Source of the DNA: a phage
DNA: 64,000 bases
Assembly: GCA_012813795.1 (NCBI GenBank)
Contig: GCA_012813795.1_4087.1
Strand: one strand, 5' to 3'
Position numbers and translations under genes: made by a program. The notes beneath the pieces were generated by a model. The model had not been told where the DNA came from. It ran no database searches and was given only the letters and a program-made list of their open reading frames with translations. This document shows, piece by piece, positions 9,677 to 60,733 of this stretch. Positions within the stretch are counted from its first letter, which is position 1, and each line of letters opens with the position of its first letter.

Positions 9677-9740
9677 GGTTGGTTCCTCATTAGATTATAA
9701 ATTAGTGTTGTGTTTCATTGGTAGTATCTTATCACTTCAC

Positions 9741-14372: not shown

Positions 14373-14797
14373 TAACCTCTACTCTTACTAGTATGTTCAT
14401 TTATTGCATCTACCAGGTCATAACCCTGATAGTTAATACCATCAATTATAACTTTGTACTTATTACGTACCTTTGTGCCATCAGTTTTGGTCCAAATTGT
14501 GTTGTCTGGTGTAATAGATACAGTGTGATTTAAAATGAAATCAAACATCTGTTCCTTTGATAGTACTGTGACATTTTCAGTAATCATATCTACATTGATA
14601 CATTCACGAGTATGCTCAACACCTTCAAAAATGGCAACACCTTCGGTTTCTTTCAGTTTCTGTGCTTGAGCTTTAGCCGTTCCCATATCATCGGCATGAA
14701 CTGTTTCTGTACTGTATTCTACATTTAGTACGTTACCAGTATCTACGTCTTTCCATGTGTCACGAAAATGAACTTTAATCTTTGCTGTATTAGACAC
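14369..14797 (-). CDS. hypothetical protein
   Basis: 142-aa ORF. Confidence 0.55.
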   Translation of the reverse strand: MSNTAKIKVHFRDTWKDVDTGNVLNVEYSTETVHADDMGTAKAQAQKLKETEGVAIFEGVEHTRECINVDMITENVTVLSKEQMFDFILNHTVSITPDNTIWTKTDGTKVRNKYKVIIDGINYQGYDLVDAINEHTSKSRGY

Positions 14798-15254
14798 GAC
14801 CGCTTACCTCATTTTCTTTCAATTTAGAACATACATAGAGAATAGCACCCAATTCGTCACGTGTCAAGTCCTGTAGGTCATATGCCACCTGCATCTGAAA
14901 GTAACTTTCATCACTAAGGTCAGTGAATTGGTCAACATTTTCTACATGCACAAAGAAGTTTTTGGGATCATCATTGTAATGTGAATTATAAGGTCTTATT
15001 GAAAACCCATGACTGTATATATCCAATACGAATTTAGCATTTAAATAGCCCTCTAAATCAAGAGATGCAAGAATCGAATTGGATCTTTCAAAAATGTCCA
15101 TGAAATTATTACGATAAGATCTTGCACAAATCAGTACATCACCGAGTTGGATATCAACTTTCTGTCCAGTCTTGGATTCAGCTAACCCAATGATGTACTC
15201 CATAAACCCAGGAAAATATTTCCTGGATTTAATATCTTTCAGTACTGGACGCAT
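14790..15254 (-). CDS. EE-x-FQ family paralog
   Basis: C-terminal SDESYFQMQVAYDLQDLTRDELGAIL. Confidence 0.6.
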   Translation of the reverse strand: MRPVLKDIKSRKYFPGFMEYIIGLAESKTGQKVDIQLGDVLICARSYRNNFMDIFERSNSILASLDLEGYLNAKFVLDIYSHGFSIRPYNSHYNDDPKNFFVHVENVDQFTDLSDESYFQMQVAYDLQDLTRDELGAILYVCSKLKENEVSGRV

Positions 15255-15769
15255 TACATGTACCTCGCAAAAGAATCAATCTCTTCTGCATCAATCTTAA
15301 TCATATCTTCTGTACTGCTTGTGAAGATGATATGTCCATCAGGTGTAAATTGCAACCTCTGATTGATTGAGTACTGCATATTACATGAATCATATTCACC
15401 CCAGTCAATGACATATGATGCCATTTTGTCATTTGCACCGAAGAACACAACATGAGTAACATCACGCTCTGACAGGCGATCTACCAATGAAGTTCCGTTG
15501 TAAAAATCAGCCTCCGTGTCTTTCTTAAAGACAATAGCAAACTTCTTCAGTACTGATTCAATTGACAAACCATTAGCATAACGATATGCACGTTGCGATT
15601 CATCACCAACATACATGTACAGAATGTCAGTGAACTTGAAGTTTTGAACTTCACAGTTTTCAAATACTAGTTGTACTTCTTCAATGTTACCAAATGCCAT
15701 TTTATATCTCCGTGTACTCATATGTAATTCGATTACATATAGAAACAATTTAAATGTCAACCCATTCAA
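15254..15769 (-). CDS. hypothetical protein
   Basis: 171-aa ORF inside the paralog array. Confidence 0.55.
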   Translation of the reverse strand: MNGLTFKLFLYVIELHMSTRRYKMAFGNIEEVQLVFENCEVQNFKFTDILYMYVGDESQRAYRYANGLSIESVLKKFAIVFKKDTEADFYNGTSLVDRLSERDVTHVVFFGANDKMASYVIDWGEYDSCNMQYSINQRLQFTPDGHIIFTSSTEDMIKIDAEEIDSFARYM

Positions 15770-15790
15770 ATCAGACAGTTATGTGGTCGT

Positions 15791-16258
15791 TCACACTGTA
15801 CCCTTATTTGGAATCATTGCACTTAATCTTATTAAATCACGAATTTCTTCATATGTCAAGTCATGGATATCATGTAGAGTTTGAATCTGGAAGTACTGTT
15901 CTTCGGTTAATGGATGATAATTAGCACCAACTTCAATGTGACAGATTTCTGTGCTCTCAATAACTGAACTTAAATCCAAATTAACAGCATTAAATGGTGT
16001 TAAATGTAATGTAACACCACCGGAATTCACAATTACAGTGTATGTACGTTCGGTTCCCCTGTACATGTGTAGCCTCAGTGAGTGAATTTTCTCAAATGAA
16101 GTTGCAGCCCCATGAAGTTTATATGCATATATCTCAATGCTATATGAAGCATTCCATTGTGATGGATGATAACGGCACATCTTTTTTACCATCATGTCAA
16201 TTGCAGCACCCACCATACGACCCAAGTACTCACGATTAACTACTTGATCAAATCGCAT
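15791..16258 (-). CDS. EE-x-FQ family paralog
   Basis: LTEEQYFQIQTLHDIHDLTYEEIRDLI. Confidence 0.6.
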   Translation of the reverse strand: MRFDQVVNREYLGRMVGAAIDMMVKKMCRYHPSQWNASYSIEIYAYKLHGAATSFEKIHSLRLHMYRGTERTYTVIVNSGGVTLHLTPFNAVNLDLSSVIESTEICHIEVGANYHPLTEEQYFQIQTLHDIHDLTYEEIRDLIRLSAMIPNKGTV

Positions 16259-16659
16259 CTGAAATCCTCAATAAATTTCTGTACTGAAACCATCAACTCA
16301 TAAGGAATTCGCATATCTTTCACAGTGCTATCCTGAAAGTACTCTTCTTCAGTAGTATACAACTTACTAGCTGCCATTTTAACATCTTCAAAATCATCAT
16401 GAAAGAATTCGTTCTCATTGACAATAACATTAATACGTGCGTCATTAACCAATGTACCAGGAACTAGGTGAATTCCAAATGATAGACCACTTTTAATATC
16501 CTGAATATGGATAGTCAGAACACCATTATTCAGATAGCACCAGTTTTCATCTCCGAAGTAAACGTTCAATCCTTCACCTGGATAACGAAACTCACCATGA
16601 TTATCAAGTGCATTGATGATCATTTCATTGTATTCTGTACTTAACTTATAATTTTTCAT
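16240..16659 (-). CDS. EE-x-FQ family paralog
   Basis: TTEEEYFQDSTVKDM... Confidence 0.6.
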   Translation of the reverse strand: MKNYKLSTEYNEMIINALDNHGEFRYPGEGLNVYFGDENWCYLNNGVLTIHIQDIKSGLSFGIHLVPGTLVNDARINVIVNENEFFHDDFEDVKMAASKLYTTEEEYFQDSTVKDMRIPYELMVSVQKFIEDFRCDLIK

Positions 16660-17129
16660 TCGTCCTCTTCCTCATATAGTTTGATACATTCAACGAAGTT
16701 TTTTGATAGTGCTTTATAAAAGTTATAATCAAAAACTAAATCATTGATTAAACTTTCCTGAAAGTATTCTTCTTCTGATTTATAATCTAACTTTAAATTA
16801 TCATCAGATGACAAAACTCGAACAAAGTGTGAGGCTCCATCTTCAGTACTAATATCGTAATAGATATTAATACTAATCACTATCTTGTTCTTGGTTCTTG
16901 GTTTCGTTAACTCAATTGTACAGTGCCATCCTTTGAGTTTGATTTCTTCAATGATAACATATTCATCCATGTATTCAAAGTAAATTAATGAACAGGAACG
17001 ATTAATATAAACACCCGGATAATGGTGTCTATCAAACATAAATTCTATCTTAGAGTTTTTAATAATTTCATCTGAAAGCATTTCAGTACTGATACCGTAC
17101 TGCATTAATACATCACGTATATTTGTCAT
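16656..17129 (-). CDS. EE-x-FQ family paralog
   Basis: SEEEYFQESLINDLVFD... Confidence 0.6.
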   Translation of the reverse strand: MTNIRDVLMQYGISTEMLSDEIIKNSKIEFMFDRHHYPGVYINRSCSLIYFEYMDEYVIIEEIKLKGWHCTIELTKPRTKNKIVISINIYYDISTEDGASHFVRVLSSDDNLKLDYKSEEEYFQESLINDLVFDYNFYKALSKNFVECIKLYEEEDE

Positions 17130-17590
17130 AACTTACCTACGACGTAACAGATTCTGCGTAAGTCAAAGAATGAAATTTTACTCAAATCATACACAAAGCA
17201 TAATTGCTCATACATTTCTTCTTGTAACTCATACATTACAGGATCAATATCGATGGCAATCATCTTGTCTATATCAATTTCAATATGATCTTTGAATAAA
17301 TCAATGGATATGTCATTAGTCGTAGTGATGTTATCAATGGTTATAAAAATGTTATCACAATTGTAAAACTCGGTTAAGTATCCATTATTGTATGCACCAA
17401 CAGTAATAATCCCATCCTTATGTGTCAATGTATGACGTTGTACAAATTCATTAAGTCTAACAAGATTGTACATATACTCAATAGCATCGGAAAAGATATC
17501 GTCTTCTACAACCAAATTCATGGTGTTCTCCTTAAAAAGAAAAAAGGCCGATTCAATTTGAATCAGCCTTAAGTATAACATTTGTGGCAT
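17126..17590 (-). CDS. divergent EE-x-FQ family paralog
   Basis: ELQEEMYEQLCFVYDLSKISFFDLRRI. Confidence 0.5.
   Translation of the reverse strand: MPQMLYLRLIQIESAFFLFKENTMNLVVEDDIFSDAIEYMYNLVRLNEFVQRHTLTHKDGIITVGAYNNGYLTEFYNCDNIFITIDNITTTNDISIDLFKDHIEIDIDKMIAIDIDPVMYELQEEMYEQLCFVYDLSKISFFDLRRICYVVGKL
17533..17571 (-). terminator. intrinsic terminator
   Basis: Hairpin aaggccgattcaa/ttgaatcagcctt followed on the minus strand by a T-run. Confidence 0.6.
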
Positions 17591-17850
17591 TGAAAGTCAA
17601 TACCAAAATCAAAAGTAATAACCTAGAGGGAGGGTAGTTATTACTCGTTTAGTGACATATATAATGATAAACAGGAGGTAAAAAACATTATACATGTTAT
17701 ATCTCTCCAGAACTACAATGATAGGTACTGGACCTGGAGAGAATGGAAAGACAAACCACTCACAGTACCATTTTACGACAAAATATGTGATAGCTTCTGA
17801 AAGAAAAAGGAGGATTCAGTACTGCTCCAGAAGCTATCGGTATAACATTT

Positions 17851-18129
17851 TCAGTACTGAATGTTTAGTTTAGGATGAGTATGTCCATCTTCGATTTGTT
17901 TTAGAATCGAGTCACGAATTTCTACTGCCCCTTGATAACTATATTTATCTCGTGGGATCACCCATGTATATTCACCATCAGTGGTTTTAAAATCAATACA
18001 CGGGTTATCTTTATATTCAGATGCAACCATTGCAATTACATGAATAGAATTCAAAGAATGATTAGAATACGGATAATTATCTTTGAACTTAAAGGTCTTG
18101 AGTTCTTCAGGAGCTACAATGAATTCCAT
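17851..18129 (-). CDS. hypothetical protein
   Basis: 92-aa ORF. Confidence 0.5.
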   Translation of the reverse strand: MEFIVAPEELKTFKFKDNYPYSNHSLNSIHVIAMVASEYKDNPCIDFKTTDGEYTWVIPRDKYSYQGAVEIRDSILKQIEDGHTHPKLNIQY

Positions 18130-18344
18130 TATTCATCCTCGTACTTCTTAAATGGTGGTACTGTTACATTGAAGTCTTTGCACATTTTAGTGGAACGAAC
18201 TTCAGTGTTGTTGTGGTAATTCTTCTTAAATTCATAAGAAACAAAATTACGAATACCTGGTGTATGAATAATTGCAAGAACAAAGGTACGACCAAAAAGA
18301 CATAACAAATTCCAGAACATATTAATCTCCAAATTAGTAGGCAT
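18129..18344 (-). CDS. small membrane protein
   Basis: 71-aa ORF, hydrophobic core. Confidence 0.4.
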   Translation of the reverse strand: MPTNLEINMFWNLLCLFGRTFVLAIIHTPGIRNFVSYEFKKNYHNNTEVRSTKMCKDFNVTVPPFKKYEDE

Positions 18345-18688
18345 TAATCAAACGTGATACATCTAGTATAGCGTTAATCTCTTCTAATGTCAAGTCACCA
18401 ATGTCATTTATCATTGAGTACTGAAACAGTGATTCTTCAGTGTAATTGCATTCTGGTACAGCGATAAGGATAGGCTGCTTGGATACGTCCAAAGTTATTT
18501 TAGCCATTGTGCTATATATATCAAATTGATATAATTGATTTTTGGAAGTATATGATATGTATATATTATTTGATTCAGATGGATGTACCAAGGTAAAACC
18601 ATCGTAACATAATAGTTTAATGTTCGGATCGTCAAAATTGCCTGTATAAAGGTTCTTTCGAACATCTTGTATTATACGTACTATTAGA

Positions 18689-18696
<8 letters not shown>
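18334..18696 (-). CDS. EE-x-FQ family paralog
   Basis: TEESLFQYSMINDIGDLTLEEINAIL. Confidence 0.6.
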
Positions 18697-19465
<769 letters not shown>

Positions 19466-19468
19466 ACA

Positions 19469-19601
<133 letters not shown>

Positions 19602-19602
19602 A

Positions 19603-19702
<100 letters not shown>

Positions 19703-19746
19703 ATAGGCACATACGGGTCTGCTTTTAAGCTACTGATTCGGGAATC

Positions 19747-19792
<46 letters not shown>

Positions 19793-19799
19793 CGTTCTT

Positions 19800-20018
<219 letters not shown>

Positions 20019-20027
20019 TAATACCCT

Positions 20028-20429
20028 TTAGTAGTTTAAGTCAGCGGCGTTGAACACACCGAGTGAAGTCTTACCACGTAGTTTAGGGGAAATGACATAT
20101 TTTGTCAATGTCTTTTTACCGTACCAGTACTCGAAATCTTTTTCTTCTACATACGGATTAGGGAAATCCCATTTGCGTTCTTTATGAATTTGCTTGGCCT
20201 GGACTTGAAGCTTTTCAACTTCATCTGGTGGTACAGTATCTACATTATTAAACTGCATGTACATACCTTTTAACCCATCAAGAATTAATTTTTCAGTTTC
20301 TTTAACTAATGTAATCTTTTCGATTCCAGTACTGATATTCATGTAGTCATCTACATAACCATTCCAGATAACAATCTCTGGATTACCTTCGATTCCCTGA
20401 AGCATCTTGATCAAGTCATTCTTTTTCAT
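20028..20429 (-). CDS. hypothetical protein
   Basis: 133-aa ORF. Confidence 0.55.
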   Translation of the reverse strand: MKKNDLIKMLQGIEGNPEIVIWNGYVDDYMNISTGIEKITLVKETEKLILDGLKGMYMQFNNVDTVPPDEVEKLQVQAKQIHKERKWDFPNPYVEEKDFEYWYGKKTLTKYVISPKLRGKTSLGVFNAADLNY

Positions 20430-20437
20430 TTGAATTC

Positions 20438-22078
<1,641 letters not shown>

Positions 22079-22263
22079 ATCACCAACTTTAATTAAAAAA
22101 ATGGATGGTGACGCTTTTAAACGCCGCTGTTAATTCAGCTTTATAACCACCCGTTTTAACTTGCCTTTCGGCTACCTTGACGTGGGGCGTACAGGCTACT
22201 AAAAGCAACTTCTGTAAACATATTTCCACGCCTTACCATTTTCATTATATCAGTACTTTTATC

Positions 22264-23385
<1,122 letters not shown>

Positions 23386-23570: not shown

Positions 23571-23574
<4 letters not shown>

Positions 23575-24074
23575 TTACGTTGCATCCAATGTGAGCCAGT
23601 CCATACTTTTTTCTTTTCACGTTCTATCTGTCGTTTTTTTAATTCTTCATCCCACAGGATATTGTCATTCAAGAAATAGTCATATAGTTCTTTTAATTTC
23701 AAATTATCAGAAAATGCGGGAAAGTACTTATTATCGCATACCAAGCTCTCTTGGAAATGTGCATCTTCATCTGTGATGTATCGATATGTAAAAATTCTAT
23801 TCGGGTTTGGATAGATACCATTTGTTTCAGAGAAACATTTTCTAAGTAGACTTTTACCAAAATCACAGATAATAGTGTCTTTACGAACAAAATTCCAGCG
23901 AGTAACCATTGTAATTGTTAGAGTTTGATAATTCTGATCTAAGCTTATTCGATGTTCACCATCTTTGTGCTTATAGTGATAAGTGCCCTGTTTTCGAACT
24001 GTTCGTTCAAACTCATTAATATTAATTTTACTTAAAATTTCAGTAATACTTTCCGGTACATGCGTAATGAGCAT
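23571..24074 (-). CDS. hypothetical protein with internal EE-x-FQ-like motif
   Basis: 167 aa; contains TDEDAHFQESLV. Confidence 0.5.
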
Positions 24075-24485: not shown

Positions 24486-24776
24486 TTATTTGTCCAGTAC
24501 TATCAAGTGTTTCATCTCTTCTTCGGTAAAGAATGCACTGTCGTGTACAATAGAACCATTTTCATCTATTACATAGTACAGGTTGCCATATCGTTGGACT
24601 TCAATTCCGTCGATTTCAATTCGTGGAAAATTATGCACAATACTGTCTGCACCGAAAACCTCACCAAAAAAGTTTGATGCTGGATTAATAATAACTTTCA
24701 TATGTACCTCGGAGTAAAAAAAATGAGTACTGCAAGCAGTACTCATAAATAGTTTTATTTTTTGTAAAACAACCAA
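24486..24776 (-). CDS. hypothetical protein
   Basis: 96-aa ORF. Confidence 0.5.
   Translation of the reverse strand: MVVLQKIKLFMSTACSTHFFYSEVHMKVIINPASNFFGEVFGADSIVHNFPRIEIDGIEVQRYGNLYYVIDENGSIVHDSAFFTEEEMKHLIVLDK
24715..24747 (-). terminator. intrinsic terminator (atgagtactgcaagcagtactcat + T8)
   Basis: 10-bp perfect stem followed on the minus strand by TTTTTTTT. Confidence 0.65.
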
Positions 24777-25105
24777 CCGAATGCACGAACACCAGCATAC
24801 ATAATCATACTACGTGGCTTACCAACTTCAGTAGTACGTAGAGCCTGTAGTAGCACCTTATCACTATCTTTACGGGATAGCATACCAGTACTATACAAGT
24901 AGTCATGTATTGTTGCTGCGGCGTGACCCATATTACCGACTAGTTCAAATATACCACGAATACGTGGGACGCTTGCAAAATCAGTTTTGAAACCTGCGGG
25001 AACAACAATTTTAATACCGTTATACTCGTATTCTAGATCTTCTAGAACTTTCCAACGTTGACCTTCGTTATTAATTAATTCTACTTTAAGATTACTTTTA
25101 AACAT
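24755..25105 (-). CDS. DUF1353-like protein
   Basis: PAGFKTDFASVPR...HDYLY motif. Confidence 0.5.
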   Translation of the reverse strand: MFKSNLKVELINNEGQRWKVLEDLEYEYNGIKIVVPAGFKTDFASVPRIRGIFELVGNMGHAAATIHDYLYSTGMLSRKDSDKVLLQALRTTEVGKPRSMIMYAGVRAFGWLFYKK

Positions 25106-30428: not shown

Positions 30429-30868
30429 TTACTCCTTAAAGTAGATATCACGAATTTGTTTAATCATCTCTAACTCTTGAAGTCCTATCATACCAAAGTC
30501 TTCTTGTATTGTCAACTGCTGAAAGTACATTTCTTCTAAATTATTGTACGGAATCCCAACAAGATTCAAAGGCTCACTTTCCACACGATATATTGTATCT
30601 TCTACGTCATGCTTTTCAATGTGAATACTAAATGTATCTTTTTGAATTCTAAATTTATAAAATGTTTGATTTGATGTAAACAATCCAACTTTAGGATGGA
30701 ATCCCATTTGAATACACAAACAATCTTCATCGTTATATTTCAGGTATATAGTTTTTGACGTTGCCAGTACTTTAGACTTTGGGTAGTAAAAGTCCCCCAT
30801 CTCCTTCTGGCGTAGCCAATCATTATAAACTACCGGATGTTTAACTTTCTTTAATTGGTGCAGTACTG

Positions 30869-30884
<16 letters not shown>
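30429..30884 (-). CDS. EE-x-FQ family paralog
   Basis: NLEEMYFQQLTIQEDFGMIGLQELEMI. Confidence 0.6.
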
Positions 30885-32257
<1,373 letters not shown>

Positions 32258-32272
32258 TTGTGCCTCTGATGG

Positions 32273-34171
32273 TTAAAAGAATATATCACGTAGTAAATGT
32301 TCTATAACAGGTGCTGTCCAGCCATTACCAAGCATTTTGTACGCTTGTGTTGAACTACTAACTTTGAAGTAGTTTACATCAATTCCTTGCAACATGCAAC
32401 ACTCTTGTACTGTTAAATGACGATAGTCCACATTTCGTTTACCCTTCTCAATCAGGAAGTTCCTGTTGATATCAGGGTCTTTGAAAACGATTTGTCTTCT
32501 TGACTTATTGAAGTACTGATTCGGATCTCCACCCTTGAAGTAGTTTGCGTCAATGCAATATGATTTATCACGATCAGTATACCAATTACCAGTTAGTATA
32601 TCTTGTAATTTTGGTGCTAAAATAAGAGGTTTTGGAATAAACAACTTATCCGAGCTATACCAGTAGTAACGTTGGCGATAATGTGCTGTATAATTTTGTG
32701 AATTTATCAAAATTGGTGTCATTTCCAACACGCCATTGATATAATCCTTGAAATCTTCCTTCATCTTAACATTCTCAAAAAGAACTTTCAAGTTAGGATT
32801 GAGACTTTTTATGTGCTGGTAAATATCAACCATTGTATGGAATAACATACCACGAGGATCATTCACACCGCCTTGTTTCCCAGCAACTGACCACGCTTGG
32901 CAGTTATGAACTACAATATTGTTCGCCGTATATGTGTTATCTACTGCAACTTCAATATTGTAAACGGTTTTCCATTCTCCGGTTGTGGTGTTCGATTTAA
33001 CACCTTTTACCCATGAATATGACCCATCATCATAGAATGCTTCATCTTTTCGGTGCTTTTCTTTTTTGTATGTTAATACGTAATACGGCTTCTGATTAAC
33101 AACACGTTCTTCTATAACTTTTGTTTCAGACGGTTTAAAGTATGTTATGTTAGAATGACGACCATACACATTCATAATTAGTTGTTGTATACCAAGAATA
33201 ACATTCTTTGATGTTGATGTAAATTTTAAACAATCATCTTTCTTGTCATGGTGACCATCTGCGTCAAAATAACCATCAATGAATGCTTTCTGATTAGCGA
33301 TACTTTCAGTGAAAAGTGTGGGGTGTACTTGTTTATTTGAAGCACCCTTACCCATTTGTTCACAAAATTCAACTAGTTCTTTTGAACAAATATAGAATTT
33401 ATAAGATGTTCTTTCTTTAACAAAATTATATTTCATATTCATACCATCAAAACATGAAACCAATTCATCAAATTCATCATGAGCACAGCAAATAAAAACA
33501 CGATATTGATAACTATTTTTTCTATTTTGTCGTTTTACTTTGTAAGTCCATCCATCACCCATAAATCTACCCATGAAATACCAAAAGCTTTCACTCTTGT
33601 TATGTTGAAAATTCACATTACAACGAACATTACATATAGCATGTTCTTCTGTGAGTTCATGTGCATCGATCCATGTAGGTTCTGTATATTCACGAACATA
33701 TTGTCGTTTTTCATTATCCCACTTCTTGCTCATTTTTCTCGCATAAAATGGATGATTATCAGTGCATTCAATTGGTATATGTCCCTGACCTGTGATGATT
33801 CTTGTTGGTGCAATCTTGCTACCAATACTCAATACTTTTTGGTATTGTCCAGTGTGTGTAAGAACCATATCACCAATTTTTATATCTTTTATATCTTTAT
33901 GACCTTCATTTGTCATGATCATGGTTCCTGCTGGGAAGCAAGGAAAACCACCCATCAGAAGATCTATCTTGTCCCATTCGATATCCCATTCTTTCCATCT
34001 AGTTACATCACCCAATTGGATGATATCAGGAAAGTTAGCCTGGGATTCAGCTATAGCAAATTTATCAATTTCAGATGAGTAGTACTTTTCAACTGGTATT
34101 CCTGCACTTTGCAAGGCCATATACCCAACACTCATCCCATTGAATAGTGATAGTACACGTATCGGTTCCAT
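32273..34171 (-). CDS. DNA (cytosine-5)-methyltransferase (Dcm-type) interrupted by an in-frame intein
   Basis: Motif I (LFNGMSVG), motif IV GGFP|C...CQAWSVAG split exactly at the PCQ catalytic Cys, ENV motif, C-terminal GNGWTAPV motif. Confidence 0.75.
   Translation of the reverse strand: MEPIRVLSLFNGMSVGYMALQSAGIPVEKYYSSEIDKFAIAESQANFPDIIQLGDVTRWKEWDIEWDKIDLLMGGFPCFPAGTMIMTNEGHKDIKDIKIGDMVLTHTGQYQKVLSIGSKIAPTRIITGQGHIPIECTDNHPFYARKMSKKWDNEKRQYVREYTEPTWIDAHELTEEHAICNVRCNVNFQHNKSESFWYFMGRFMGDGWTYKVKRQNRKNSYQYRVFICCAHDEFDELVSCFDGMNMKYNFVKERTSYKFYICSKELVEFCEQMGKGASNKQVHPTLFTESIANQKAFIDGYFDADGHHDKKDDCLKFTSTSKNVILGIQQLIMNVYGRHSNITYFKPSETKVIEERVVNQKPYYVLTYKKEKHRKDEAFYDDGSYSWVKGVKSNTTTGEWKTVYNIEVAVDNTYTANNIVVHNCQAWSVAGKQGGVNDPRGMLFHTMVDIYQHIKSLNPNLKVLFENVKMKEDFKDYINGVLEMTPILINSQNYTAHYRQRYYWYSSDKLFIPKPLILAPKLQDILTGNWYTDRDKSYCIDANYFKGGDPNQYFNKSRRQIVFKDPDINRNFLIEKGKRNVDYRHLTVQECCMLQGIDVNYFKVSSSTQAYKMLGNGWTAPVIEHLLRDIFF
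32903..33940 (-). mobile_element. intein with LAGLIDADG homing-endonuclease domain (346 aa, residues 78-423 of the MTase ORF)
   Basis: Starts CFPAGTMI (block A), ends VVHN followed by extein Cys; two LAGLIDADG motifs (MGRFMGDGW, IDGYFDADG). Confidence 0.65.
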
Positions 34172-34370
34172 CTATAATCCTTTATAAAATAAAATACTGG
34201 ACGAATATTCGCCCAGTATTGTCCTTTTTAATACTATTTAAAACTTATGTGGATTTCTCTTTTTAAGACCATCCAGTACATCAGTAGGTAGAATTTCACG
34301 GAATGACCCCACTGGGATAAGGATCATTACATATTTCAATTGGAGTTTCCTCGTTGTATAAGATTGATTA

Positions 34371-34457: not shown

Positions 34458-34748
34458 TTAGAAATCGTCAATACTTTTTTCTTGACACCATCGGGCAGTA
34501 CAGATGATTGCCGATGCAAGGATTGAAGCACTAGCACGACCACCGCCTAATATGTACTGACTGACCACACCAATCATATTGAACACTTTATCACTCTCGG
34601 ACAGTTGTTCAAAATCCTTTTTCCAAAATTCATATTCTTCGTCTGAAACTTCAAATTCACTACCCATATCATTTAAAATCTTTTTTAGTACTGCACTATG
34701 TTCACTCATCTTTATCACCATAACGTTCGTCGTAGTAATCATCATCAC
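34458..34748 (-). CDS. hypothetical protein
   Basis: 96-aa ORF. Confidence 0.5.
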   Translation of the reverse strand: MMMITTTNVMVIKMSEHSAVLKKILNDMGSEFEVSDEEYEFWKKDFEQLSESDKVFNMIGVVSQYILGGGRASASILASAIICTARWCQEKSIDDF

Positions 34749-34785: not shown

Positions 34786-35046
34786 TCACATGGTAAACGT
34801 GTTATCACCATCCATGTCTTCATCAGTTGCTTCTGCTAAGGTCTTGATAGTTAATAATCCACGCTTCACATACAACATGAAAACCTTTTCATAATTACCA
34901 AACATGATTTCCGGTGACATGTAATTTTCTGTTACAATGACAATTGGTCGCCCCTGTGTCAGCATACGAAACATAGTGCGATATTTGTCAAATGTACGGA
35001 ATTCATCCATGTTCATCATGTGGCGTTTACGAACTACTGTAGTCAC
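34786..35046 (-). CDS. hypothetical protein
   Basis: 86-aa ORF. Confidence 0.5.
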   Translation of the reverse strand: MTTVVRKRHMMNMDEFRTFDKYRTMFRMLTQGRPIVIVTENYMSPEIMFGNYEKVFMLYVKRGLLTIKTLAEATDEDMDGDNTFTM

Positions 35047-35050
35047 TGTG

Positions 35051-35473
35051 TTACCCTTTCAATTGTTTCTCGATATGGAATGTATTGTATATCTTGTTGT
35101 ACACAGTGTCAATAATTTTCTTAACGTCTGCTAACTCTTCGACAGTTGTGCACACATCACTGATAGTACTTAACTGAAACAACTCTTCTTCAGTACTGTA
35201 CAGTGTTATATCAAATTTGTTGCGAAGTTCATCTTCGATAACGTATTGATTTGTGACAGTATATGATGCAATTTCAACATCCAACAACTTATCACCTTCA
35301 AAAACATTATAAATGAACACAAATGTTAGTTCTTCACTCTCATCATCACTGTAGCTTATATATACATTGTAATTTTCACCATGAAAATCAAGATTGTGCT
35401 CAAACCTATTATCAGGTACTAGTGAATCTATAGGCATTCCCTTTAACAAATCAAAACAATCTCTTGGGTTCAT
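35051..35473 (-). CDS. EE-x-FQ family paralog
   Basis: STEEELFQLSTISDV... Confidence 0.6.
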   Translation of the reverse strand: MNPRDCFDLLKGMPIDSLVPDNRFEHNLDFHGENYNVYISYSDDESEELTFVFIYNVFEGDKLLDVEIASYTVTNQYVIEDELRNKFDITLYSTEEELFQLSTISDVCTTVEELADVKKIIDTVYNKIYNTFHIEKQLKG

Positions 35474-35910
35474 TTTACATCCATTTGTCGCTGTTCATCA
35501 ATAAAAAAGATGTTAAAGATAGCTGAACGCATTTTTGTTAGCGTACTCATGAGATATTTTAAATCCTTGAAATCAATATTAAATGTTTGAACCAGTGATT
35601 CCTGGAAATACCCCTCTTCAGTAGTGCATTCACTTACATTTTGTACCTGATATATTTTGATAATATTATCATCACGAAGCATAATTTCTAAGTTATTGTT
35701 ATTAACATTGTGCACGATATACATCTGATCACCATATACCAGATTATTAACTGATAATGATAATACATTATTTTCAATAATAATCTTAAAGCAATTCTGA
35801 CCTACGTATGTGGTATTTTTAATTTGTTCTTCAGGATCAGTCAAACCATCGTTGATAAATTTAATTTTATTAAAAGTACTGATATATTTTTTAACTAATT
35901 TAATGTTCAT
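35470..35910 (-). CDS. EE-x-FQ family paralog
   Basis: TTEEGYFQESLVQTF... Confidence 0.6.
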   Translation of the reverse strand: MNIKLVKKYISTFNKIKFINDGLTDPEEQIKNTTYVGQNCFKIIIENNVLSLSVNNLVYGDQMYIVHNVNNNNLEIMLRDDNIIKIYQVQNVSECTTEEGYFQESLVQTFNIDFKDLKYLMSTLTKMRSAIFNIFFIDEQRQMDVK

Positions 35911-36287
35911 TGCTTTACCTTAGATAGAGCATAATTCATTATTGACTTGATTTTTTGTAAATTGTCATATGACATTACATGTTTTTCAATTAATGATAGT
36001 TGAAATAATTCTTCTTCAGTTGAATTCAAGTAAACTTCTGAACCATCATAATTTTCAAAATCATAAAGGTATGAAAGACGGTCATCTATATACCAACCAA
36101 TCCATTCAATGGTGTTTCTTTCTTTGAAAACACAAGTATATGGATTATCTCTTGAATCTAAGGTTATGGTTAAACGTAAACATGAATTTGATTGTTGTAC
36201 ACTCTGTCTCCCATAATATACAGTAACCTCATCGGTTTCAATTGATTTATACAAAGCATCAATTTTTCTATCCAATTCATCTACCAT
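35907..36287 (-). CDS. EE-x-FQ family paralog
   Basis: STEEELFQLSLIEKH... Confidence 0.6.
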   Translation of the reverse strand: MVDELDRKIDALYKSIETDEVTVYYGRQSVQQSNSCLRLTITLDSRDNPYTCVFKERNTIEWIGWYIDDRLSYLYDFENYDGSEVYLNSTEEELFQLSLIEKHVMSYDNLQKIKSIMNYALSKVKQ

Positions 36288-36691
36288 AATCTTACCCTTT
36301 TCAATGCTTTAACTTCGTCAGTGCACGGGAACACAACGAATCCAGTTAATGTTAGACCATCAAAATGGTTGAATCCATAATCATGAATCTTAGTTGCAGT
36401 GAATCCTTCAGCTTTCACTTTATCGAATAGATTAAGCATCTGTTCTTCAGATTTAGCCTTTAAGATAATCTTGCGGCGACCGTCCTGTACCCAAGTACTG
36501 AAATCGTTCAGGATCTTTTCATCTTCATCTCTTGGGTTCTCACCAACAGCATTACAACCACGAATTGATGTACCAGCAACTGTAACCGTGGACCAGATAG
36601 AATCAACCGCATGACCCGCCTGAGCAGCAAGCTTCCCAACTGGCATATCTAAGTCTTCACGAATGATTATGTAACATTTACTTACTGTCAT
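36281..36691 (-). CDS. peptidyl-tRNA hydrolase, PTH2 family
   Basis: KCYIIIREDLDMPVGKLAAQAGHA... and C-terminal ...LTGFVVFP..EVKALKRVRLW match the PTH2 fold signature (archaeal/eukaryotic-type Pth). Confidence 0.6.
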   Translation of the reverse strand: MTVSKCYIIIREDLDMPVGKLAAQAGHAVDSIWSTVTVAGTSIRGCNAVGENPRDEDEKILNDFSTWVQDGRRKIILKAKSEEQMLNLFDKVKAEGFTATKIHDYGFNHFDGLTLTGFVVFPCTDEVKALKRVRLW

Positions 36692-37103
36692 CTACAATCT
36701 CCTTTTCATATTGCTCAAGTATCGAATAGATCTTATTGGAAATGTCCAATGTTTTAACATAATCACAGTACCTGATACACCCAAAATCATACAAAGTACT
36801 AACCATAAAGAATTCTTCTTCAGAGTACTTCTTTTCATTGAATGTAATGGTATTTGTAATTTTTCCAGATTCTGAATATTTTACATAGATAATACTACCA
36901 TTACTTATGTAATCTAATGTCTCTGAATACTTTTCAATACTAGAACTATGTCTAAATTGAATTCCTACAGATTTATCATACCAAAGAGATTTATTTCCGT
37001 CAGTAAGTATAGCATAATCAATCTTACGTTTATCATTGACACACATACCACAATCGGTAATTTTTAGTTTAGTGATATCAATATTCAACAGATCACTTAT
37101 CAT
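36678..37103 (-). CDS. EE-x-FQ family paralog (variant SEEEFFMVS)
   Basis: C-terminal motif variant. Confidence 0.55.
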   Translation of the reverse strand: MISDLLNIDITKLKITDCGMCVNDKRKIDYAILTDGNKSLWYDKSVGIQFRHSSSIEKYSETLDYISNGSIIYVKYSESGKITNTITFNEKKYSEEEFFMVSTLYDFGCIRYCDYVKTLDISNKIYSILEQYEKEIVDDSK

Positions 37104-37527
37104 CCAATTCTCCGAATTTGGTTAGAGCAAACACTTTTGCCTCATCATGCAGTTTGTGAATTAGTATGATATTATCATATGTTAAATCTAGTACATTGTC
37201 AACAAGTGAACGTTGAAATAGTATCTCTTCAGATGTGATTTCATGGATGTTTTCTATCTTAATTTCATTGAATGTATCAGTTTCATTTTCTCGCGTACTC
37301 ATGATCAACGTACCACTCGTTGAAATGTATGATATCTTGGTATCCACACCATCAATGGTTGCGTACAGGCGAATTATTTCATATGAATCAGTTAATCTTA
37401 CATTAACCTTAATTTCATCCTCTGTACAAAACCACACACTTTTAGCAAAGAAATTGACACGTACTTTCATATCTTTAAGTTTATTATTTTGGAAATATTT
37501 TAGTACTTTTTTGAATGATATAATCAT
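37093..37527 (-). CDS. EE-x-FQ family paralog
   Basis: TSEEILFQRSLVDNVLDLTYDNI. Confidence 0.6.
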   Translation of the reverse strand: MIISFKKVLKYFQNNKLKDMKVRVNFFAKSVWFCTEDEIKVNVRLTDSYEIIRLYATIDGVDTKISYISTSGTLIMSTRENETDTFNEIKIENIHEITSEEILFQRSLVDNVLDLTYDNIILIHKLHDEAKVFALTKFGELDDK

Positions 37528-37544
37528 ATGTATCTCCTTTAGTA

Positions 37545-37940
37545 CTATATCGCATAGTACTTAAATAATGTTTTTAGATCATCAATAGTGAATGGTAAAT
37601 CCTCCAAAAGCAACTGTTGAAAGTAATGCTCTTCGTCAAGATACTTATGTATATTGATGAATGATTTTCTATGATAATCCGCTTTCCATGTAGGTCTTGT
37701 ACCCTTAGTATATTCAGTGAATACAATTTTGTCCATACCATAATCATACACGAATTCATTCTTTTCTGCAACCCCCTGATACTTTAGTTTTACCGGTTCT
37801 TTGCTGATAGAAAATTTATGCTCAGATGATTCATAATAGAATGATGATTGCTGATATTTTGATAAATCAATCTTTGAAAAATCATTTAGATAATAAGAAA
37901 GTTTAATTGTGACGATGCTGCCTATTCGACGACCCAACAT
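37545..37940 (-). CDS. EE-x-FQ family paralog
   Basis: LDEEHYFQQLLLEDLPFTIDDLKTL. Confidence 0.6.
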   Translation of the reverse strand: MLGRRIGSIVTIKLSYYLNDFSKIDLSKYQQSSFYYESSEHKFSISKEPVKLKYQGVAEKNEFVYDYGMDKIVFTEYTKGTRPTWKADYHRKSFINIHKYLDEEHYFQQLLLEDLPFTIDDLKTLFKYYAI

Positions 37941-37955
37941 ACTTTTATCCTAATA

Positions 37956-37980
37956 TAAAAAATGCCCCTGGGAGGGGCAG
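37956..37980 (-). terminator. intrinsic terminator (gcccctgggaggggc)
   Basis: GC-rich hairpin followed on the minus strand by TTTTTTAT. Confidence 0.55.
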
Positions 37981-38089
37981 TACGAAAAGATATAAAATGT
38001 ACAATAAGAAATGGAAAATATAATAAATTAATTTTATTATAGAAGGGAGGAAAAATAACATAATAATATGTTAGCCATTACTGGCATAA

Positions 38090-38641
38090 TTATTTATCAT
38101 TAAGCTCTTTTAATTTAGTCTGAACATCTAGTGTTAATTTTCTTAGTTTCTTAAAGACAAAAGCACTGTCATCTAGTTCAAGTTTCATACCATGTGTAAT
38201 GGCATAAAGAACTTCAGCTTTAGCCAAATCATGACGCATCCAATTACCATTCTTATAGAGAGTCATTACACAAAAAGGGCAAACACTTTCAGATGTTTGA
38301 TGACCAATAAAAACGGATTGTATCGTATCATGTTGGAAATTAATAAATGACTCGTTAATTTTTTGAATTTCTGCAATTACATCAAGTTTAGCATCCGTAT
38401 TAATAGCAAAAATATTGTTCCCGTTGTCATCAGTATTGATGTTTAGCTCTATATCAGAACCTATTTTGCGTACTGCCATTGTATAAAGCAATAACTCATA
38501 CATGTCATATGACGTTACATCACCGCTTGGTGCAGTAACGTTAAGGTTAACACCGTGATGTGTAACTTCAGTACTGAATCCTTCTTTATCTGCTAGGAAA
38601 TTTACAATTTGGTTCGTGAATTTTTGAATTTGTTCGATCAT
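38090..38641 (-). CDS. hypothetical protein
   Basis: 183-aa ORF. Confidence 0.55.
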   Translation of the reverse strand: MIEQIQKFTNQIVNFLADKEGFSTEVTHHGVNLNVTAPSGDVTSYDMYELLLYTMAVRKIGSDIELNINTDDNGNNIFAINTDAKLDVIAEIQKINESFINFQHDTIQSVFIGHQTSESVCPFCVMTLYKNGNWMRHDLAKAEVLYAITHGMKLELDDSAFVFKKLRKLTLDVQTKLKELNDK

Positions 38642-38718
38642 ATTAAGTACTCCTTTACTTTGTCTTATTTAACAAATGAATATAAGGCTCCCGATTGAGA
38701 GCCTTATTTCTTTTTATA

Positions 38719-39156
38719 TTATGCGGTTTCTTCTTCGAACTTAGCGACGATATCAACCATTTCATTGATTAGTTTGATATGGTCATAAGTTACTGAACGG
38801 AAATCTACAACAAGTGACTGTTGGAAGAATTCTTCTTCTGGCAACCCACCATCAAAGTTGAGATCAACATTCTCATCATCATTAGTTGGTGCAACCTTGA
38901 TGTTGAAACTATTTTCATCAACAACCAGTTTAACTACACAACCCAAGCAGATAGATAGTACATATGCTGGTTTCTTAGCTGCTTCTTTACGGAAAGGTGC
39001 ACGAAGAGCACATACTACGCTACTAATTTCATCACCTTCTTCTTTATATTTGACGGTAATCATTAGCTCTTCAACTTTAATCGCTTCAATTACACGAGAA
39101 GGGTTTTCTGCGAAGAATGGGTTGTTACGGATTACTTGTTCAAGATTCATATTCAT
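38719..39156 (-). CDS. EE-x-FQ family paralog
   Basis: LPEEEFFQQSLVVDFRSVTYDHIKLI. Confidence 0.6.
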   Translation of the reverse strand: MNMNLEQVIRNNPFFAENPSRVIEAIKVEELMITVKYKEEGDEISSVVCALRAPFRKEAAKKPAYVLSICLGCVVKLVVDENSFNIKVAPTNDDENVDLNFDGGLPEEEFFQQSLVVDFRSVTYDHIKLINEMVDIVAKFEEETA

Positions 39157-41865: not shown

Positions 41866-42414
41866 TTATTCTCCTAACATTCTTAATACATTAGAAATAA
41901 AGAACACATCAAATGGTTCTTTTGGATTTGCTACAGAATGCTGAAATGCATATTCATGAAAATTTTCACGGTCTAACCAATCTTCATTATTAACTAACAT
42001 TTTTTTCTCACCAAGAATCACACTATGTATAGATGTGAAAGATTCTGTTGATATGGTATATCCAACCAATGTACCTTTTTTAGTGAAATCGAAAGTACCA
42101 AAATAATTTCGGGTATATTGTCTTGTTCTATTTTCAAACATTCTTGCAATATTTTCTTTGTATGGATCAGAATATGGCTGACGATATATGGGGTCTAAAG
42201 ATCCAAACATTTCTATTTTAGATTGCAGGGTTATTAAATTATCCGTGATAAAAAAATGAACGCCTTTATATTCGAAATCCTTCTTACGATTATATGAAAA
42301 TACTGATACATCCCACTCTGATATTACCTGAACGAACTCATTAACACCTCTTTCCAGATCGGGGAGATATGGTAGATCTTTATTATCGTATTGCATGTTT
42401 ATAATCCTTTTCAA
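41866..42414 (-). CDS. hypothetical protein
   Basis: 182-aa ORF. Confidence 0.55.
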   Translation of the reverse strand: MKRIINMQYDNKDLPYLPDLERGVNEFVQVISEWDVSVFSYNRKKDFEYKGVHFFITDNLITLQSKIEMFGSLDPIYRQPYSDPYKENIARMFENRTRQYTRNYFGTFDFTKKGTLVGYTISTESFTSIHSVILGEKKMLVNNEDWLDRENFHEYAFQHSVANPKEPFDVFFISNVLRMLGE

Positions 42415-42964
42415 GATTTAATACTTCTAAAATACTAAATTTATTGGAACCCTCAATGTCTTTAATAAATGCATCTGGATTGTCTTCTAATGAATATATT
42501 TCACCATTGATAAGCGTTTTTTCATGTAGAATCATAGCTGACATAATCTTATTACCCATAGATTCTTTCTCAGGCGTTGTACCATTACTATTGGTGAAGT
42601 AAATGAAGTTACTTGGTAGTTCACTCCACTCAACTGATATGATATTTTTCATAGCTGTTGTTGTACAAACTTTAATATAACGCTCAATAATCGTATTGGA
42701 TGAAGTTGCCGCAATTGTCATTGGATGACCGTGGGCAATATTTACACCGCTTGGAACTGCGATAGATGATGATATATTTGGAACATTGGATTCAATTTTA
42801 GGTTCTTTTATCCCTAAAATAAATTCATAATGACGAGCATGATGCTTCATTTTAAAAATTATAGTATCTGATTCAAAACTATAAGGAAGAATTATATTAT
42901 CATATGCACGCTTTTTGATTTCTGCTATACGCTCGAACAACTTAAGAGTTTCATTATAAAACAT
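42383..42964 (-). CDS. hypothetical protein
   Basis: 193-aa ORF. Confidence 0.55.
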   Translation of the reverse strand: MFYNETLKLFERIAEIKKRAYDNIILPYSFESDTIIFKMKHHARHYEFILGIKEPKIESNVPNISSSIAVPSGVNIAHGHPMTIAATSSNTIIERYIKVCTTTAMKNIISVEWSELPSNFIYFTNSNGTTPEKESMGNKIMSAMILHEKTLINGEIYSLEDNPDAFIKDIEGSNKFSILEVLNLEKDYKHAIR

Positions 42965-43013: not shown

Positions 43014-43568
43014 TTACAATTTAATTACTTCCTGAATACCAGTTTCCATTGCTTTCTTAGTGCGAGTATCAGAAACGACAGTACACAAATGTTCAATATC
43101 TTTACTTGGGAATGTATTAGAATCGATGATTTTTGAGTTCCAGAATCCTTTACGGAATTTCTCATAATCAGTACATTGTTCAATTTTCATTTTCTGCAAG
43201 TTATTGAACTTCTCACGCCCTGCATCAATTGTAACCATCAACTCTTGATAAATCTTAGGATCAAGATTTGGAACTTGTTGTTGAATCTGTGACATTACAA
43301 ATTTCTGATCAACTCCTTCACGTCCCTTAAAGTACGCTTCGATTGTCTCTTTCAATGCATCCTTATATTTGTCCGATACTTGAACCTTTTCTTGAATAGT
43401 TAGTGTATAACTACTCAGTTGACTTTCAGATGCATCGTAGTACTTTTTAATATTACCTTCAAAATTCACTGCACTATCATGTACTGAACTATACATACTT
43501 ACAGTTGCAAACACACCAATAACAAAAATCACCAACATACCAACCAACAAAATCATAGGCTTATTCAT
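43014..43568 (-). CDS. membrane-anchored hypothetical protein
   Basis: N-terminal TM helix. Confidence 0.55.
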   Translation of the reverse strand: MNKPMILLVGMLVIFVIGVFATVSMYSSVHDSAVNFEGNIKKYYDASESQLSSYTLTIQEKVQVSDKYKDALKETIEAYFKGREGVDQKFVMSQIQQQVPNLDPKIYQELMVTIDAGREKFNNLQKMKIEQCTDYEKFRKGFWNSKIIDSNTFPSKDIEHLCTVVSDTRTKKAMETGIQEVIKL

Positions 43569-59482: not shown

Positions 59483-59869
59483 TTACAAAAGAAGTAATCC
59501 AAAAATGATAACATAATGGGTAAAATGATGAATCATTTGATCATACCCTAACCACCACCAAAATTCAGCATCTTGTGGTGTGTGTTGTTTAGAGCCAACA
59601 ACTTTAACTCGGTCCATTACAAAATGAACAACTGCATCAATTGCAAGAAGCATGAAAAACACCTTCCACGTTGTTCCAATATAACAAGCAAAAATTGCAA
59701 TAATTATTGCAGTTCCTAATACATGAACAGCAACGTGTGCTGCCAATGGTAGAAACCACCCATGCTCTTTAAATTTACCAAGCATGTATTTGCCTTGGAA
59801 TATATAATCACACAGAAAATGTTTTATTTGAAATAATGCCAATAGCCCAAAAACTAAAAGTATACTCAT
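59483..59869 (-). CDS. DUF3307-like membrane protein
   Basis: N-terminal IKHFLCDYIFQ motif, 3-4 TM. Confidence 0.5.
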   Translation of the reverse strand: MSILLVFGLLALFQIKHFLCDYIFQGKYMLGKFKEHGWFLPLAAHVAVHVLGTAIIIAIFACYIGTTWKVFFMLLAIDAVVHFVMDRVKVVGSKQHTPQDAEFWWWLGYDQMIHHFTHYVIIFGLLLL

Positions 59870-59878
59870 ATAGTATCC

Positions 59879-60733
59879 TTATTTAACAAGGAGTAATTGT
59901 AACTCAGCACTTGGGCTTGTCTCATCATCACTCCAATATTTGTGAACTTTTTCTGGTGTTGCCTTTGCTAAAACTTCACCACCACCAACAATGTACACTT
60001 GATGTGATCCAATTAGTCTAGTCCAAAATTTAATTGCATCATCAGTGTGTAAACTATCACTAAGTATAGCGTAGCCGTGCTTTAGCATATCCATAAAGAT
60101 AGTGTAAATGATACCTTTTGTGCCTGTTTTAGATGCAGTTGCTGCGATTTCGAAAACATTCTGAACACCTAGTACTGCATCATTAGAAGTATAACCACTA
60201 ACAATAGCTAGTTGTTTACCGCTCTTATCATATGCGATAAAACCAGTACCATTCTTATTCTGATAAACGTCATAATCATTGTGCTTAGCAAAGATTACCA
60301 TGTTATGCTTACCTGTCATTTCTGCTGTCTTATCTACAAACTCATCACGGTCTTGGCCCTGAAAACTATCAAAGCGTTGTGGCATTTCTTCCAACTTCTC
60401 AGTATTTTCATAGAAGTGATGTTCTTTATTTTGACAACACTGTTCACACTCACAATCATCTGCGTGTACATCCATTGTATCATCAATTTCAGGATTGTCC
60501 TGTGCAATTTCTGCATCTTGAATGATATCCACCCAACCTTTCATTGAAGATTCAGTAGTTTTCTTTTTAACGTGTTGGGGCAACTTCGCCCCCTTTTTAA
60601 GATTTCCAGCTTTTTCATCAGCATGATTCCATTCCTTAGCAGTATCTGTTGATACACCATGTGATTTTGCAATCTCTGGGTCATGTGCCATAGCAGCAAA
60701 TAGTCTTGCTTGACTCTTAGATTTAGATGGCAT
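59879..60733 (-). CDS. hypothetical protein (DUF3008-like N-terminus)
   Basis: KSKSQARLFAAMAH... Confidence 0.5.
   Translation of the reverse strand: MPSKSKSQARLFAAMAHDPEIAKSHGVSTDTAKEWNHADEKAGNLKKGAKLPQHVKKKTTESSMKGWVDIIQDAEIAQDNPEIDDTMDVHADDCECEQCCQNKEHHFYENTEKLEEMPQRFDSFQGQDRDEFVDKTAEMTGKHNMVIFAKHNDYDVYQNKNGTGFIAYDKSGKQLAIVSGYTSNDAVLGVQNVFEIAATASKTGTKGIIYTIFMDMLKHGYAILSDSLHTDDAIKFWTRLIGSHQVYIVGGGEVLAKATPEKVHKYWSDDETSPSAELQLLLVK

Follow-up and report, generated by a model that had tools for sequence, protein, structure and literature searches.

A predicted PTH2-type peptidyl-tRNA hydrolase within a fast-evolving paralog array of an Asteriusvirus-type jumbo phage

A 64,000-nucleotide stretch of phage DNA (GenBank assembly GCA_012813795.1, contig GCA_012813795.1_4087.1; hereafter the window) carries, at positions 35,051 to 39,156, a gene for a PTH2-type peptidyl-tRNA hydrolase (36281..36691, minus strand) embedded in a run of small paralogous proteins that share an EE-x-x-FQ motif. 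Our preferred explanation, to which we assign a probability of about 0.6, is that PTH2 is an accessory, early-expressed tRNA-recycling enzyme, which has been retained by descent inside the fast-evolving paralog array. At 99.1% identity, the 4.1-kb region matches Escherichia phage A4 (ON286972.1), a 355-kb myovirus of the genus Asteriusvirus related to 121Q/PBECO4, RaK2 and GAP32. Nearly all long open reading frames (ORFs) of the window lie on the minus strand, and those described in a first-pass annotation, made from the sequence without database searches, were recovered there with the same boundaries. An identical PTH2 protein is filed at NCBI as 'Escherichia coli', on a 357,761-bp contig that represents a phage genome within a bacterial assembly.

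The PTH2 gene and its relatives in other phages

The gene was assigned as follows:

36281..36691, minus strand: PTH2-type peptidyl-tRNA hydrolase, 136 amino acids (aa), based on Pfam PF01981, matches to Pth2 structures in the Protein Data Bank (PDB) and the annotation of A4_114

This assignment, proposed in the first-pass annotation, was borne out by the profile searches. PF01981 matched with E=2.6e-18 and 66.7 bits (cut-off 23), aligning residues 5–126 to profile positions 2–103 of 115, and PHROG 1866 matched with E=6.7e-30. Six solved Pth2 structures were matched by phmmer (2zv3 with E=3.4e-13), while a profile built from the phage-clade PTH2 sequences reached 5.8e-32 for 1rlk and 4.4e-20 for 1xty. 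The comparison of catalytic residues with Pth2 structures, suggested in the same annotation, also came out in its favour: in the profile alignment to 1xty (S. solfataricus Pth2), K18 (in G-K-I-A-A-Q) corresponds to K20 of the phage protein and D86 (in E-D-A-G) to its D104. We take K18 and D86 to be active-site residues of the S. solfataricus enzyme; Fromant and colleagues reportedly found them by mutagenesis in 2005, and reviews on Pth2 yielded no residue-level detail on the catalytic residues. K20 and D104 are invariant across 12 phage sequences and 1rlk. An alignment of the window protein, RaK2 ORF188, GAP32 gp382, T. acidophilum Pth2 and ten relatives from databases has the invariant positions K5, R11, D13, L14, M16, G19, K20, A23, Q24, H27, W67, G71, R73, K74, I75, G96, D104, T114, T116 and P122. 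Because the Lys/Asp pair and other invariant Pth2 positions are retained, the catalytic core is predicted to be intact, with clade-specific decoration.

The phage protein resembles archaeal and eukaryotic Pth2 (1xty from S. solfataricus, 2zv3 from M. jannaschii, 1rlk from T. acidophilum and 1q7s, human Bit1/PTRH2) in the motifs R-x-D-L-x-M-x-x-G-K-x-x-A-Q-x-x-H and D-x-G ... T-x-T ... P. It differs from them in its overall identity of approximately 29%, in an insert of about 25 residues after helix 1 (residues 31–62) that is shared by the phage clade, and in a basic C-terminus, K-R-x-R-L-W, conserved among the phage PTH2s. Moreover, the Thr of the archaeal D-[AR]-G-x-T motif (D-A-G-x-T) is replaced by Asn in the window protein and in 10 of the 11 other aligned phage sequences, with P0161 keeping Thr. 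A further difference is that the gene is carried by a virus whose bacterial host itself uses Pth1, which is unrelated to Pth2 in fold and sequence (PMC3488237; PMC11202043). The likeness to the bacterial enzyme (E. coli/Salmonella Pth) is one of functional analogy only, in that the same reaction is performed on peptidyl-tRNA and N-acetyl-aminoacyl-tRNA.

The insert, the basic C-terminus and the Thr to Asn exchange in D-x-G-x-T could be taken to mean that the PTH2 fold has been repurposed, either for another ester substrate or for a non-catalytic binding role such as that proposed for human Bit1/PTRH2 in apoptosis signalling. We regard this as very unlikely. Sequences that share only 30–45% identity still retain the Lys/Asp pair and most of the other invariant Pth2 residues, the full-length match lies far above the Pfam cut-off, and PTH2 is tied to tRNA genes in two independent phage lineages, as described below.

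PTH2 was detected by tblastn in 42 of 50,697 phage records, nearly all of them from phages of 300–385 kb. The window protein is 99.3% identical to that of A4, 60% to that of RaK2 and 40–45% to those of the GAP32 clade, and the annotation 'peptidyl-tRNA hydrolase' is present in A4 (A4_114, USL83781.1), K64-1, Muenster, GAP32, CBB, BF and others. The phage orthologues (A4_114, RaK2 ORF188, K64-1, Muenster, GAP32 gp382, CBB_392 and that of Serratia phage BF) belong to the same family as the window protein, with the same length and insert, and they share its position upstream of a C5-methyltransferase gene and right after an EE-x-x-FQ paralog. The phage enzyme is thus already known, both in GenBank and in three papers in which it is read as a tRNA-turnover or ribosome-rescue factor: the RaK2 paper records ORF188 as Pth2 (PMC3622015), the CBB paper proposes that the hydrolase (CBB_392), located in a suspected early region, helps tRNA turnover (PMC5259590), and Iyer et al. 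include PTH2 in a jumbo-phage toolkit for RNA repair and ribosome rescue (PMC7824862).

The genomic surroundings of PTH2 in other phages are in line with such a function. In eight of nine GAP32-like loci from IMG/VR, a tRNA-Leu(tag) lies 50–550 bp downstream of PTH2 and a tRNA-Thr(tgt) approximately 4 kb upstream; exceptions in the tRNA flanks are a partial locus (L009) with tRNA-Leu only and a locus (L012) with tRNA-Ser and tRNA-Thr upstream instead. The window differs from the GAP32 clade in this respect, as its nearest tRNA is about 13 kb off and its tRNA cluster lies 13–17 kb from PTH2. In Mycobacterium phage prophiT49-2 (L020, 113..3354), an unrelated phage of 80 kb, a ten-tRNA array, a 97-aa ORF with an RF-1 domain and an RtcB-like RNA ligase are followed by PTH2, and this stretch resembles a compact cassette for tRNA repair and ribosome rescue. 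Together, the tRNA genes beside PTH2 in the GAP32 clade and the prophiT49-2 cassette favour a role in tRNA and translation maintenance, which is compatible both with ordinary peptidyl-tRNA drop-off and with damage by host defences as the stress to be relieved. The context of PTH2 in XacN1 and the Enterococcus phages gave no functional clue, and no EE-x-x-FQ neighbour was seen there or in the Mycobacterium phage.

The EE-x-x-FQ paralog family

The proteins surrounding PTH2 form one coherent, fast-evolving family that is undescribed and lies outside Pfam. A hidden Markov model (HMM) seeded with the seven members found in 35051–39156 converged on 17 ORFs of the window, so the first-pass description of PTH2 as embedded in an expanded accessory family holds. 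The paralog family announced there as a nine-member array is likewise real, although the HMM places seven members, not nine, in this interval. In leave-one-out searches all 17 members were recovered, with E-values from 1.1e-3 to 9e-12 (7.8e-5 to 6.7e-11 for the seven) and almost no non-members, and with all filters off (--max) no member scored below 70 bits, compared to 9.5 bits for the next ORF, a gap of more than 60 bits. Fifteen minus-strand ORFs of the window carry the motif [ST]EE-x-x-F-[QM] at a matching relative position; all seven members around PTH2 carry [ST]-E-E-x-x-F-Q-x-S, with the variant EEEFFM in 36678..37103. Across 41 family sequences, conservation reaches 90% or more at E107, E108, F111 and Q112. 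The model also matched ORFs of RaK2, GAP32, 121Q and the metagenomic relative L007.

The seven members and two conserved neighbours are listed below, with leave-one-out E-values for the members:

35051..35473, minus strand: family member, 140 aa, isoelectric point (pI) 4.2; E=2e-9; 37.5% identity to 121Q gp88
35470..35910, minus strand: family member, 146 aa; E=1.1e-6; 25% to 121Q gp87 and 26% to RaK2 ORF191
35907..36287, minus strand: family member, 126 aa, adjoining PTH2 downstream; E=1.4e-8; 44% to 121Q gp86 over 40% of the length
36678..37103, minus strand: family member with the EEEFFM variant, adjoining PTH2 upstream; E=7.8e-5
37093..37527, minus strand: family member, 144 aa; E=2.6e-6; 26% to 121Q gp84
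37545..37940, minus strand: family member, 131 aa, first gene past the hairpin at 37963..37979; E=4.9e-8; 29% to 121Q gp83
38719..39156, minus strand: family member, 145 aa, slow-evolving; E=6.7e-11; 72% to 121Q gp80 and 48% to RaK2 ORF184
38090..38641, minus strand: conserved 183-aa non-member interrupting the array; phrog_15745, E=2e-76; 70% to 121Q gp81
34786..35046, minus strand: conserved 86-aa non-member downstream of the array; phrog_4868; 95% to 121Q gp89

Three ORFs were considered as missing members and rejected on their family HMM scores, namely 38090..38641 (E=0.66), 34786..35046 (E=13) and 34458..34748, which contains 'SDEEYEFW' (E=1.7). The ten further members of the window are found on the minus strand at 173..679, 14790..19114 and 30429..31712, and one array of six to seven family genes abuts the tRNA-Thr at 19131..19204. 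A marginal family match (E of about 0.02) was obtained for 23571..24074.

In databases the family is split across more than ten PHROGs (e.g. phrog_23322, 24510, 24941, 30548, 30841, 33313 and 36084), and 131 clusters matched it at E<=1e-3 among 1.84 billion representative proteins, all of them unnamed and 81–217 aa long, several on contigs of 50–350 kb. The members are mostly acidic, with a median pI of 4.6 compared to 5.7 for the other ORFs.

An AlphaFold2 model of 38719..39156, computed with 41 sequences, reached a mean predicted local distance difference test (pLDDT) score of 89.7 and a predicted template modelling (pTM) score of 0.84. In the model, short helices at the N-terminus are followed by an antiparallel sheet of seven strands and by two helices at the C-terminus, the first of which (residues 107–116) begins with the EE-x-x-FQ motif; the motif is therefore taken to act, at least in part, as a helix cap and core contact. 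For 36678..37103 the same order of elements was predicted, with a pLDDT of 61 that makes the model usable for the order of secondary structure only. Searching the PDB with the family model in Foldseek gave nothing at E<=0.001 (best E 0.089), and all BFVD matches were orthologues or paralogs belonging to the same group of phages. The arrangement recalls p32/gC1qBP/Mam33, which likewise combine an N-terminal helix, seven antiparallel strands and two C-terminal helices, and the family is mostly acidic; the similarity is weak, however, and besides the missing Foldseek match, a Pfam scan of 41 members at E<=5 gave nothing recurrent and no MAM33 signal. The single match of the family sequence profile to solved structures (E=0.074) was dismissed as chance.

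Synteny, divergence and expression of the array

Reading along the minus strand, the order in the window is 38719 (member), 38090, then 37545, 37093 and 36678 (members), PTH2, 35907, 35470 and 35051 (members), 34786, 34458 and the C5-methyltransferase gene. This order is collinear with RaK2 ORF184–194, in which PTH2 is ORF188, and with 121Q gp80–91 except for PTH2, as gp86 there follows directly after gp85 and all six PTH2-flanking paralogs are kept. The 136-aa 121Q gp84 was considered as a diverged PTH2 and rejected, since it had no Pfam hit and matched the paralog HMM with 8.9e-12. In L007, which packs 13 members into 12.4 kb, PTH2 is preceded by four of them and followed by three, and nine GAP32-like loci from IMG/VR have a family gene terminating at the start of PTH2 or slightly before it. 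The upstream neighbour 36678..37103 has orthologues in RaK2 ORF187, 121Q gp85 and L007 (5592..6017), with phmmer E-values of 1e-12 to 1e-19 within the group, while phmmer detected no orthology between the PTH2-adjacent paralogs of the RaK2 clade and those of the GAP32 clade.

The parsimonious reading of this pattern is that the common ancestor already had PTH2 in the block and that the gene then disappeared from the 121Q lineage. E. coli, K-12 and O157 among the hosts, supports the growth of more than 30 PTH2-less Asteriusvirus isolates of the 121Q type with a syntenic array, and the gene is therefore accessory and dispensable. The two observations that the first-pass annotation had singled out as able to overturn its proposal consequently fall on different sides: the protein does align to the Pth2 catalytic core, and related phages without it still grow.

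The conserved pairing with a paralog raises the question of whether PTH2 works together with its EE-x-x-FQ neighbours, for example with the upstream one as a regulator, adaptor or inhibitor-decoy. In A4, RaK2, L007 and most GAP32-like loci, the start of PTH2 abuts or overlaps the end of a family gene, the upstream neighbours fall into clean orthologue groups clade by clade, and the overlap of start and stop codons implies translational coupling. Such a functional module is nevertheless very improbable: 121Q, which lacks PTH2, retains gp85, the upstream neighbour, and the remaining five paralogs of the flanks, ten of the 17 members in the window belong to other, distant arrays, the upstream neighbours of the RaK2 and GAP32 clades are not detectably orthologous, and the PTH2 genes of XacN1 and of the Enterococcus and Mycobacterium phages have no such neighbour.

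Divergence was assessed by comparing each ORF of the window with its best counterpart in the syntenic 72 kb of 121Q. The 17 family members had a median identity of 35%, compared to 73% for the 95 other ORFs (13 of which had no match). The six paralogs around PTH2 reached 25–44%, while the genes bounding them (38719, 38090, 34786 and 34458) reached 70–95%; four family members are slow-evolving, with 71–83% identity. PTH2 itself is 60% identical to its RaK2 counterpart, compared to 43–52% for its conserved neighbours. Judged by these identities, the family resembles fast-evolving accessory genes, which are thought to work at the host interface (a concept from bioRxiv 10.1101/2023.04.06.535777), and PTH2 appears conserved like an enzyme. 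Between the window and A4, synonymous and nonsynonymous changes numbered 14 and 12 in the family and 75 and 44 in the other ORFs, which is too few to draw conclusions from.

As to expression, PTH2 is preceded by a ribosome-binding site (AGGAG, 7 nt 5' of the ATG). The gene shares 14 nt with the upstream paralog at its start and 7 nt with the downstream paralog at its end, and overlaps of start and stop codons run through the whole block (37527 to 35051); because of these overlaps, PTH2 is probably translationally coupled to its neighbours. A scan for at least 11 of 12 matches to TTGACA-N16-18-TATAAT gave 31 near-consensus sigma-70 sites on the coding strand of the window and one on the other strand (2.3 ± 1.7 in a Markov-1 simulation), six of them within 34.3–40.3 kb. 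The imbalance of 31 to one suggests early expression, and transcription is probably carried out early by the host sigma-70 RNA polymerase. The candidate signals around the block are:

37174..37202, minus strand: one of the 31 sigma-70 promoter-like sites, TTGACA-17-TATGAT, inside 37093..37527 and upstream of 36678..37103 and PTH2
37963..37979, minus strand: terminator-like GC hairpin with T-run, between 38090..38641 and the block of six paralogs plus PTH2
34193..34220, minus strand: terminator-like hairpin closing the block, upstream of the C5-methyltransferase gene
38682..38707, minus strand: terminator-like hairpin

The window as a whole resembles an early region read by the host RNA polymerase. 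Its C5 cytosine DNA methyltransferase (32273..34171, minus strand, 632 aa) contains an intein with a homing endonuclease (Hint_2, LAGLIDADG_3, Intein_splicing), whereas the orthologues in 121Q, RaK2 and GAP32 have approximately 286–297 aa and lack the intein. The tRNA cluster (19131..23260, minus strand) comprises Thr(tgt), Asn(gtt), Met(cat), Ser(act) and Ser(tga); a Ser tRNA with anticodon ACT is unusual, and the same gene is annotated in 121Q. Non-family ORFs at 8353..10205 and 41866..42964 (minus strand) diverge as fast as the family (27–30% to 121Q) and may represent further accessory families. Minus-strand ORFs lacking a counterpart in the syntenic 72 kb of 121Q are found at 7234..7701, 21124..21681, 23571..24074, 24755..25105, 59483..59869 and 60723..61658. 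Finally, 43 of the 185 codons of 43014..43568 (minus strand) are changed relative to A4, 33 of them synonymously, compared to 0–12 in the neighbours, which has the appearance of local recombination within a genome that is elsewhere 99% identical.

The role of PTH2 during infection

According to the tRNA-recycling explanation, 36281..36691 would encode a catalytically competent PTH2 of archaeal/eukaryotic type, presumably active in E. coli and vertically inherited within the RaK2/GAP32/A4 group of approximately 350-kb jumbo myoviruses. Transcribed early and coupled in translation to both flanking paralogs, the enzyme would cleave the ester bond of peptidyl-tRNA or N-blocked aminoacyl-tRNA off the ribosome, and the tRNA would be returned to the pool while the phage heavily translates hundreds of mostly short ORFs. 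PTH2 would in this way supplement the single Pth1 of the host, as part of a phage translation-support set together with tRNAs, IF3, a CCA-adding enzyme and RNA repair. Its position in the array would reflect common descent in an old block of early genes, with the EE-x-x-FQ proteins forming an accessory family separate from PTH2. Translation rescue, which the first-pass annotation had named as an alternative, fits the context better than its idea of an anti-toxin device, given the tRNA neighbours in the GAP32 clade and the tRNA, RF-1 and RtcB genes in the mycobacteriophage, and it has already been published.

Several points weigh against this explanation. The activity of the enzyme is read from sequence, as for every phage PTH2, and the insert of about 25 residues and the Thr to Asn exchange may alter its specificity. 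The promoters are predicted consensus matches, from which the early timing is inferred. E. coli already possesses an essential Pth1, and a need for extra capacity is assumed. Furthermore, the location of PTH2 in the most diverged block of the window and its loss in one clade would also fit a conditional counter-defence gene.

That PTH2 undoes damage from tRNA-directed host immunity or toxins is the most probable of the alternatives, though we consider it a tentative one and rather improbable. In the form proposed by the first-pass annotation, PTH2 would deacylate the N-acetyl-aminoacyl-tRNA produced by GNAT toxins (TacT, AtaT, ItaT, KacT); in a second form, it would clear peptidyl-tRNA or its fragments after anticodon-nuclease attack, with phage RNA repair and tRNAs then restoring translation. 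The premise of the first form is correct for bacterial Pth1, which deacylates TacT-acetylated aminoacyl-tRNA and, when overexpressed, counters TacT toxicity (PMC4942678). GNAT toxin-antitoxin systems do occur in hosts of these phages (AtaT in enterohaemorrhagic E. coli, ItaT in E. coli, KacT in Klebsiella), PTH2 has been placed in the RNA-repair and ribosome-rescue toolkit of jumbo phages (PMC7824862), RtcB and the RF-1-domain ORF adjoin it in prophiT49-2, and it lies in an early, hypervariable accessory block from which one clade has lost it. In the literature searched, however, no GNAT toxin was found to act as an antiphage system and no phage Pth as counter-defence, and no linkage of PTH2 to a toxin or defence system was visible in the loci read. 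The rate data also argue against it, since PTH2 evolves like a housekeeping enzyme (60% to RaK2 compared to 43–52%) and the arms-race signature lies on its neighbours, and the host already possesses a Pth1 that acts on these substrates. A role against GNAT toxins or abortive infection is plausible, with nothing in the evidence that is specific to it.

The paralogs most likely bind a host target as their general mode of action. With at least 17 members in 64 kb, mostly acidic and diverging about twice as fast as their neighbours, they could conceivably be early host-takeover or anti-defence proteins, and the pair formed by a member followed by PTH2 might jointly counter defences directed at tRNA or translation. 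We consider this combined proposal speculative and unlikely to hold; if it were true, the paralog would bind a host effector and PTH2 would clear the blocked tRNAs.

For the tRNA-recycling explanation and the GNAT-toxin idea alike, the Asteriusviruses provide a natural experiment, in which the arrays of A4-like and 121Q-like phages are collinear save that PTH2 is cleanly present in the former and absent from the latter. Owing to this contrast, both the contribution of the enzyme and the GNAT-toxin idea are cheaply testable. The EE-x-x-FQ family, for its part, accounts for a considerable portion of the early region in RaK2-like jumbo phages.

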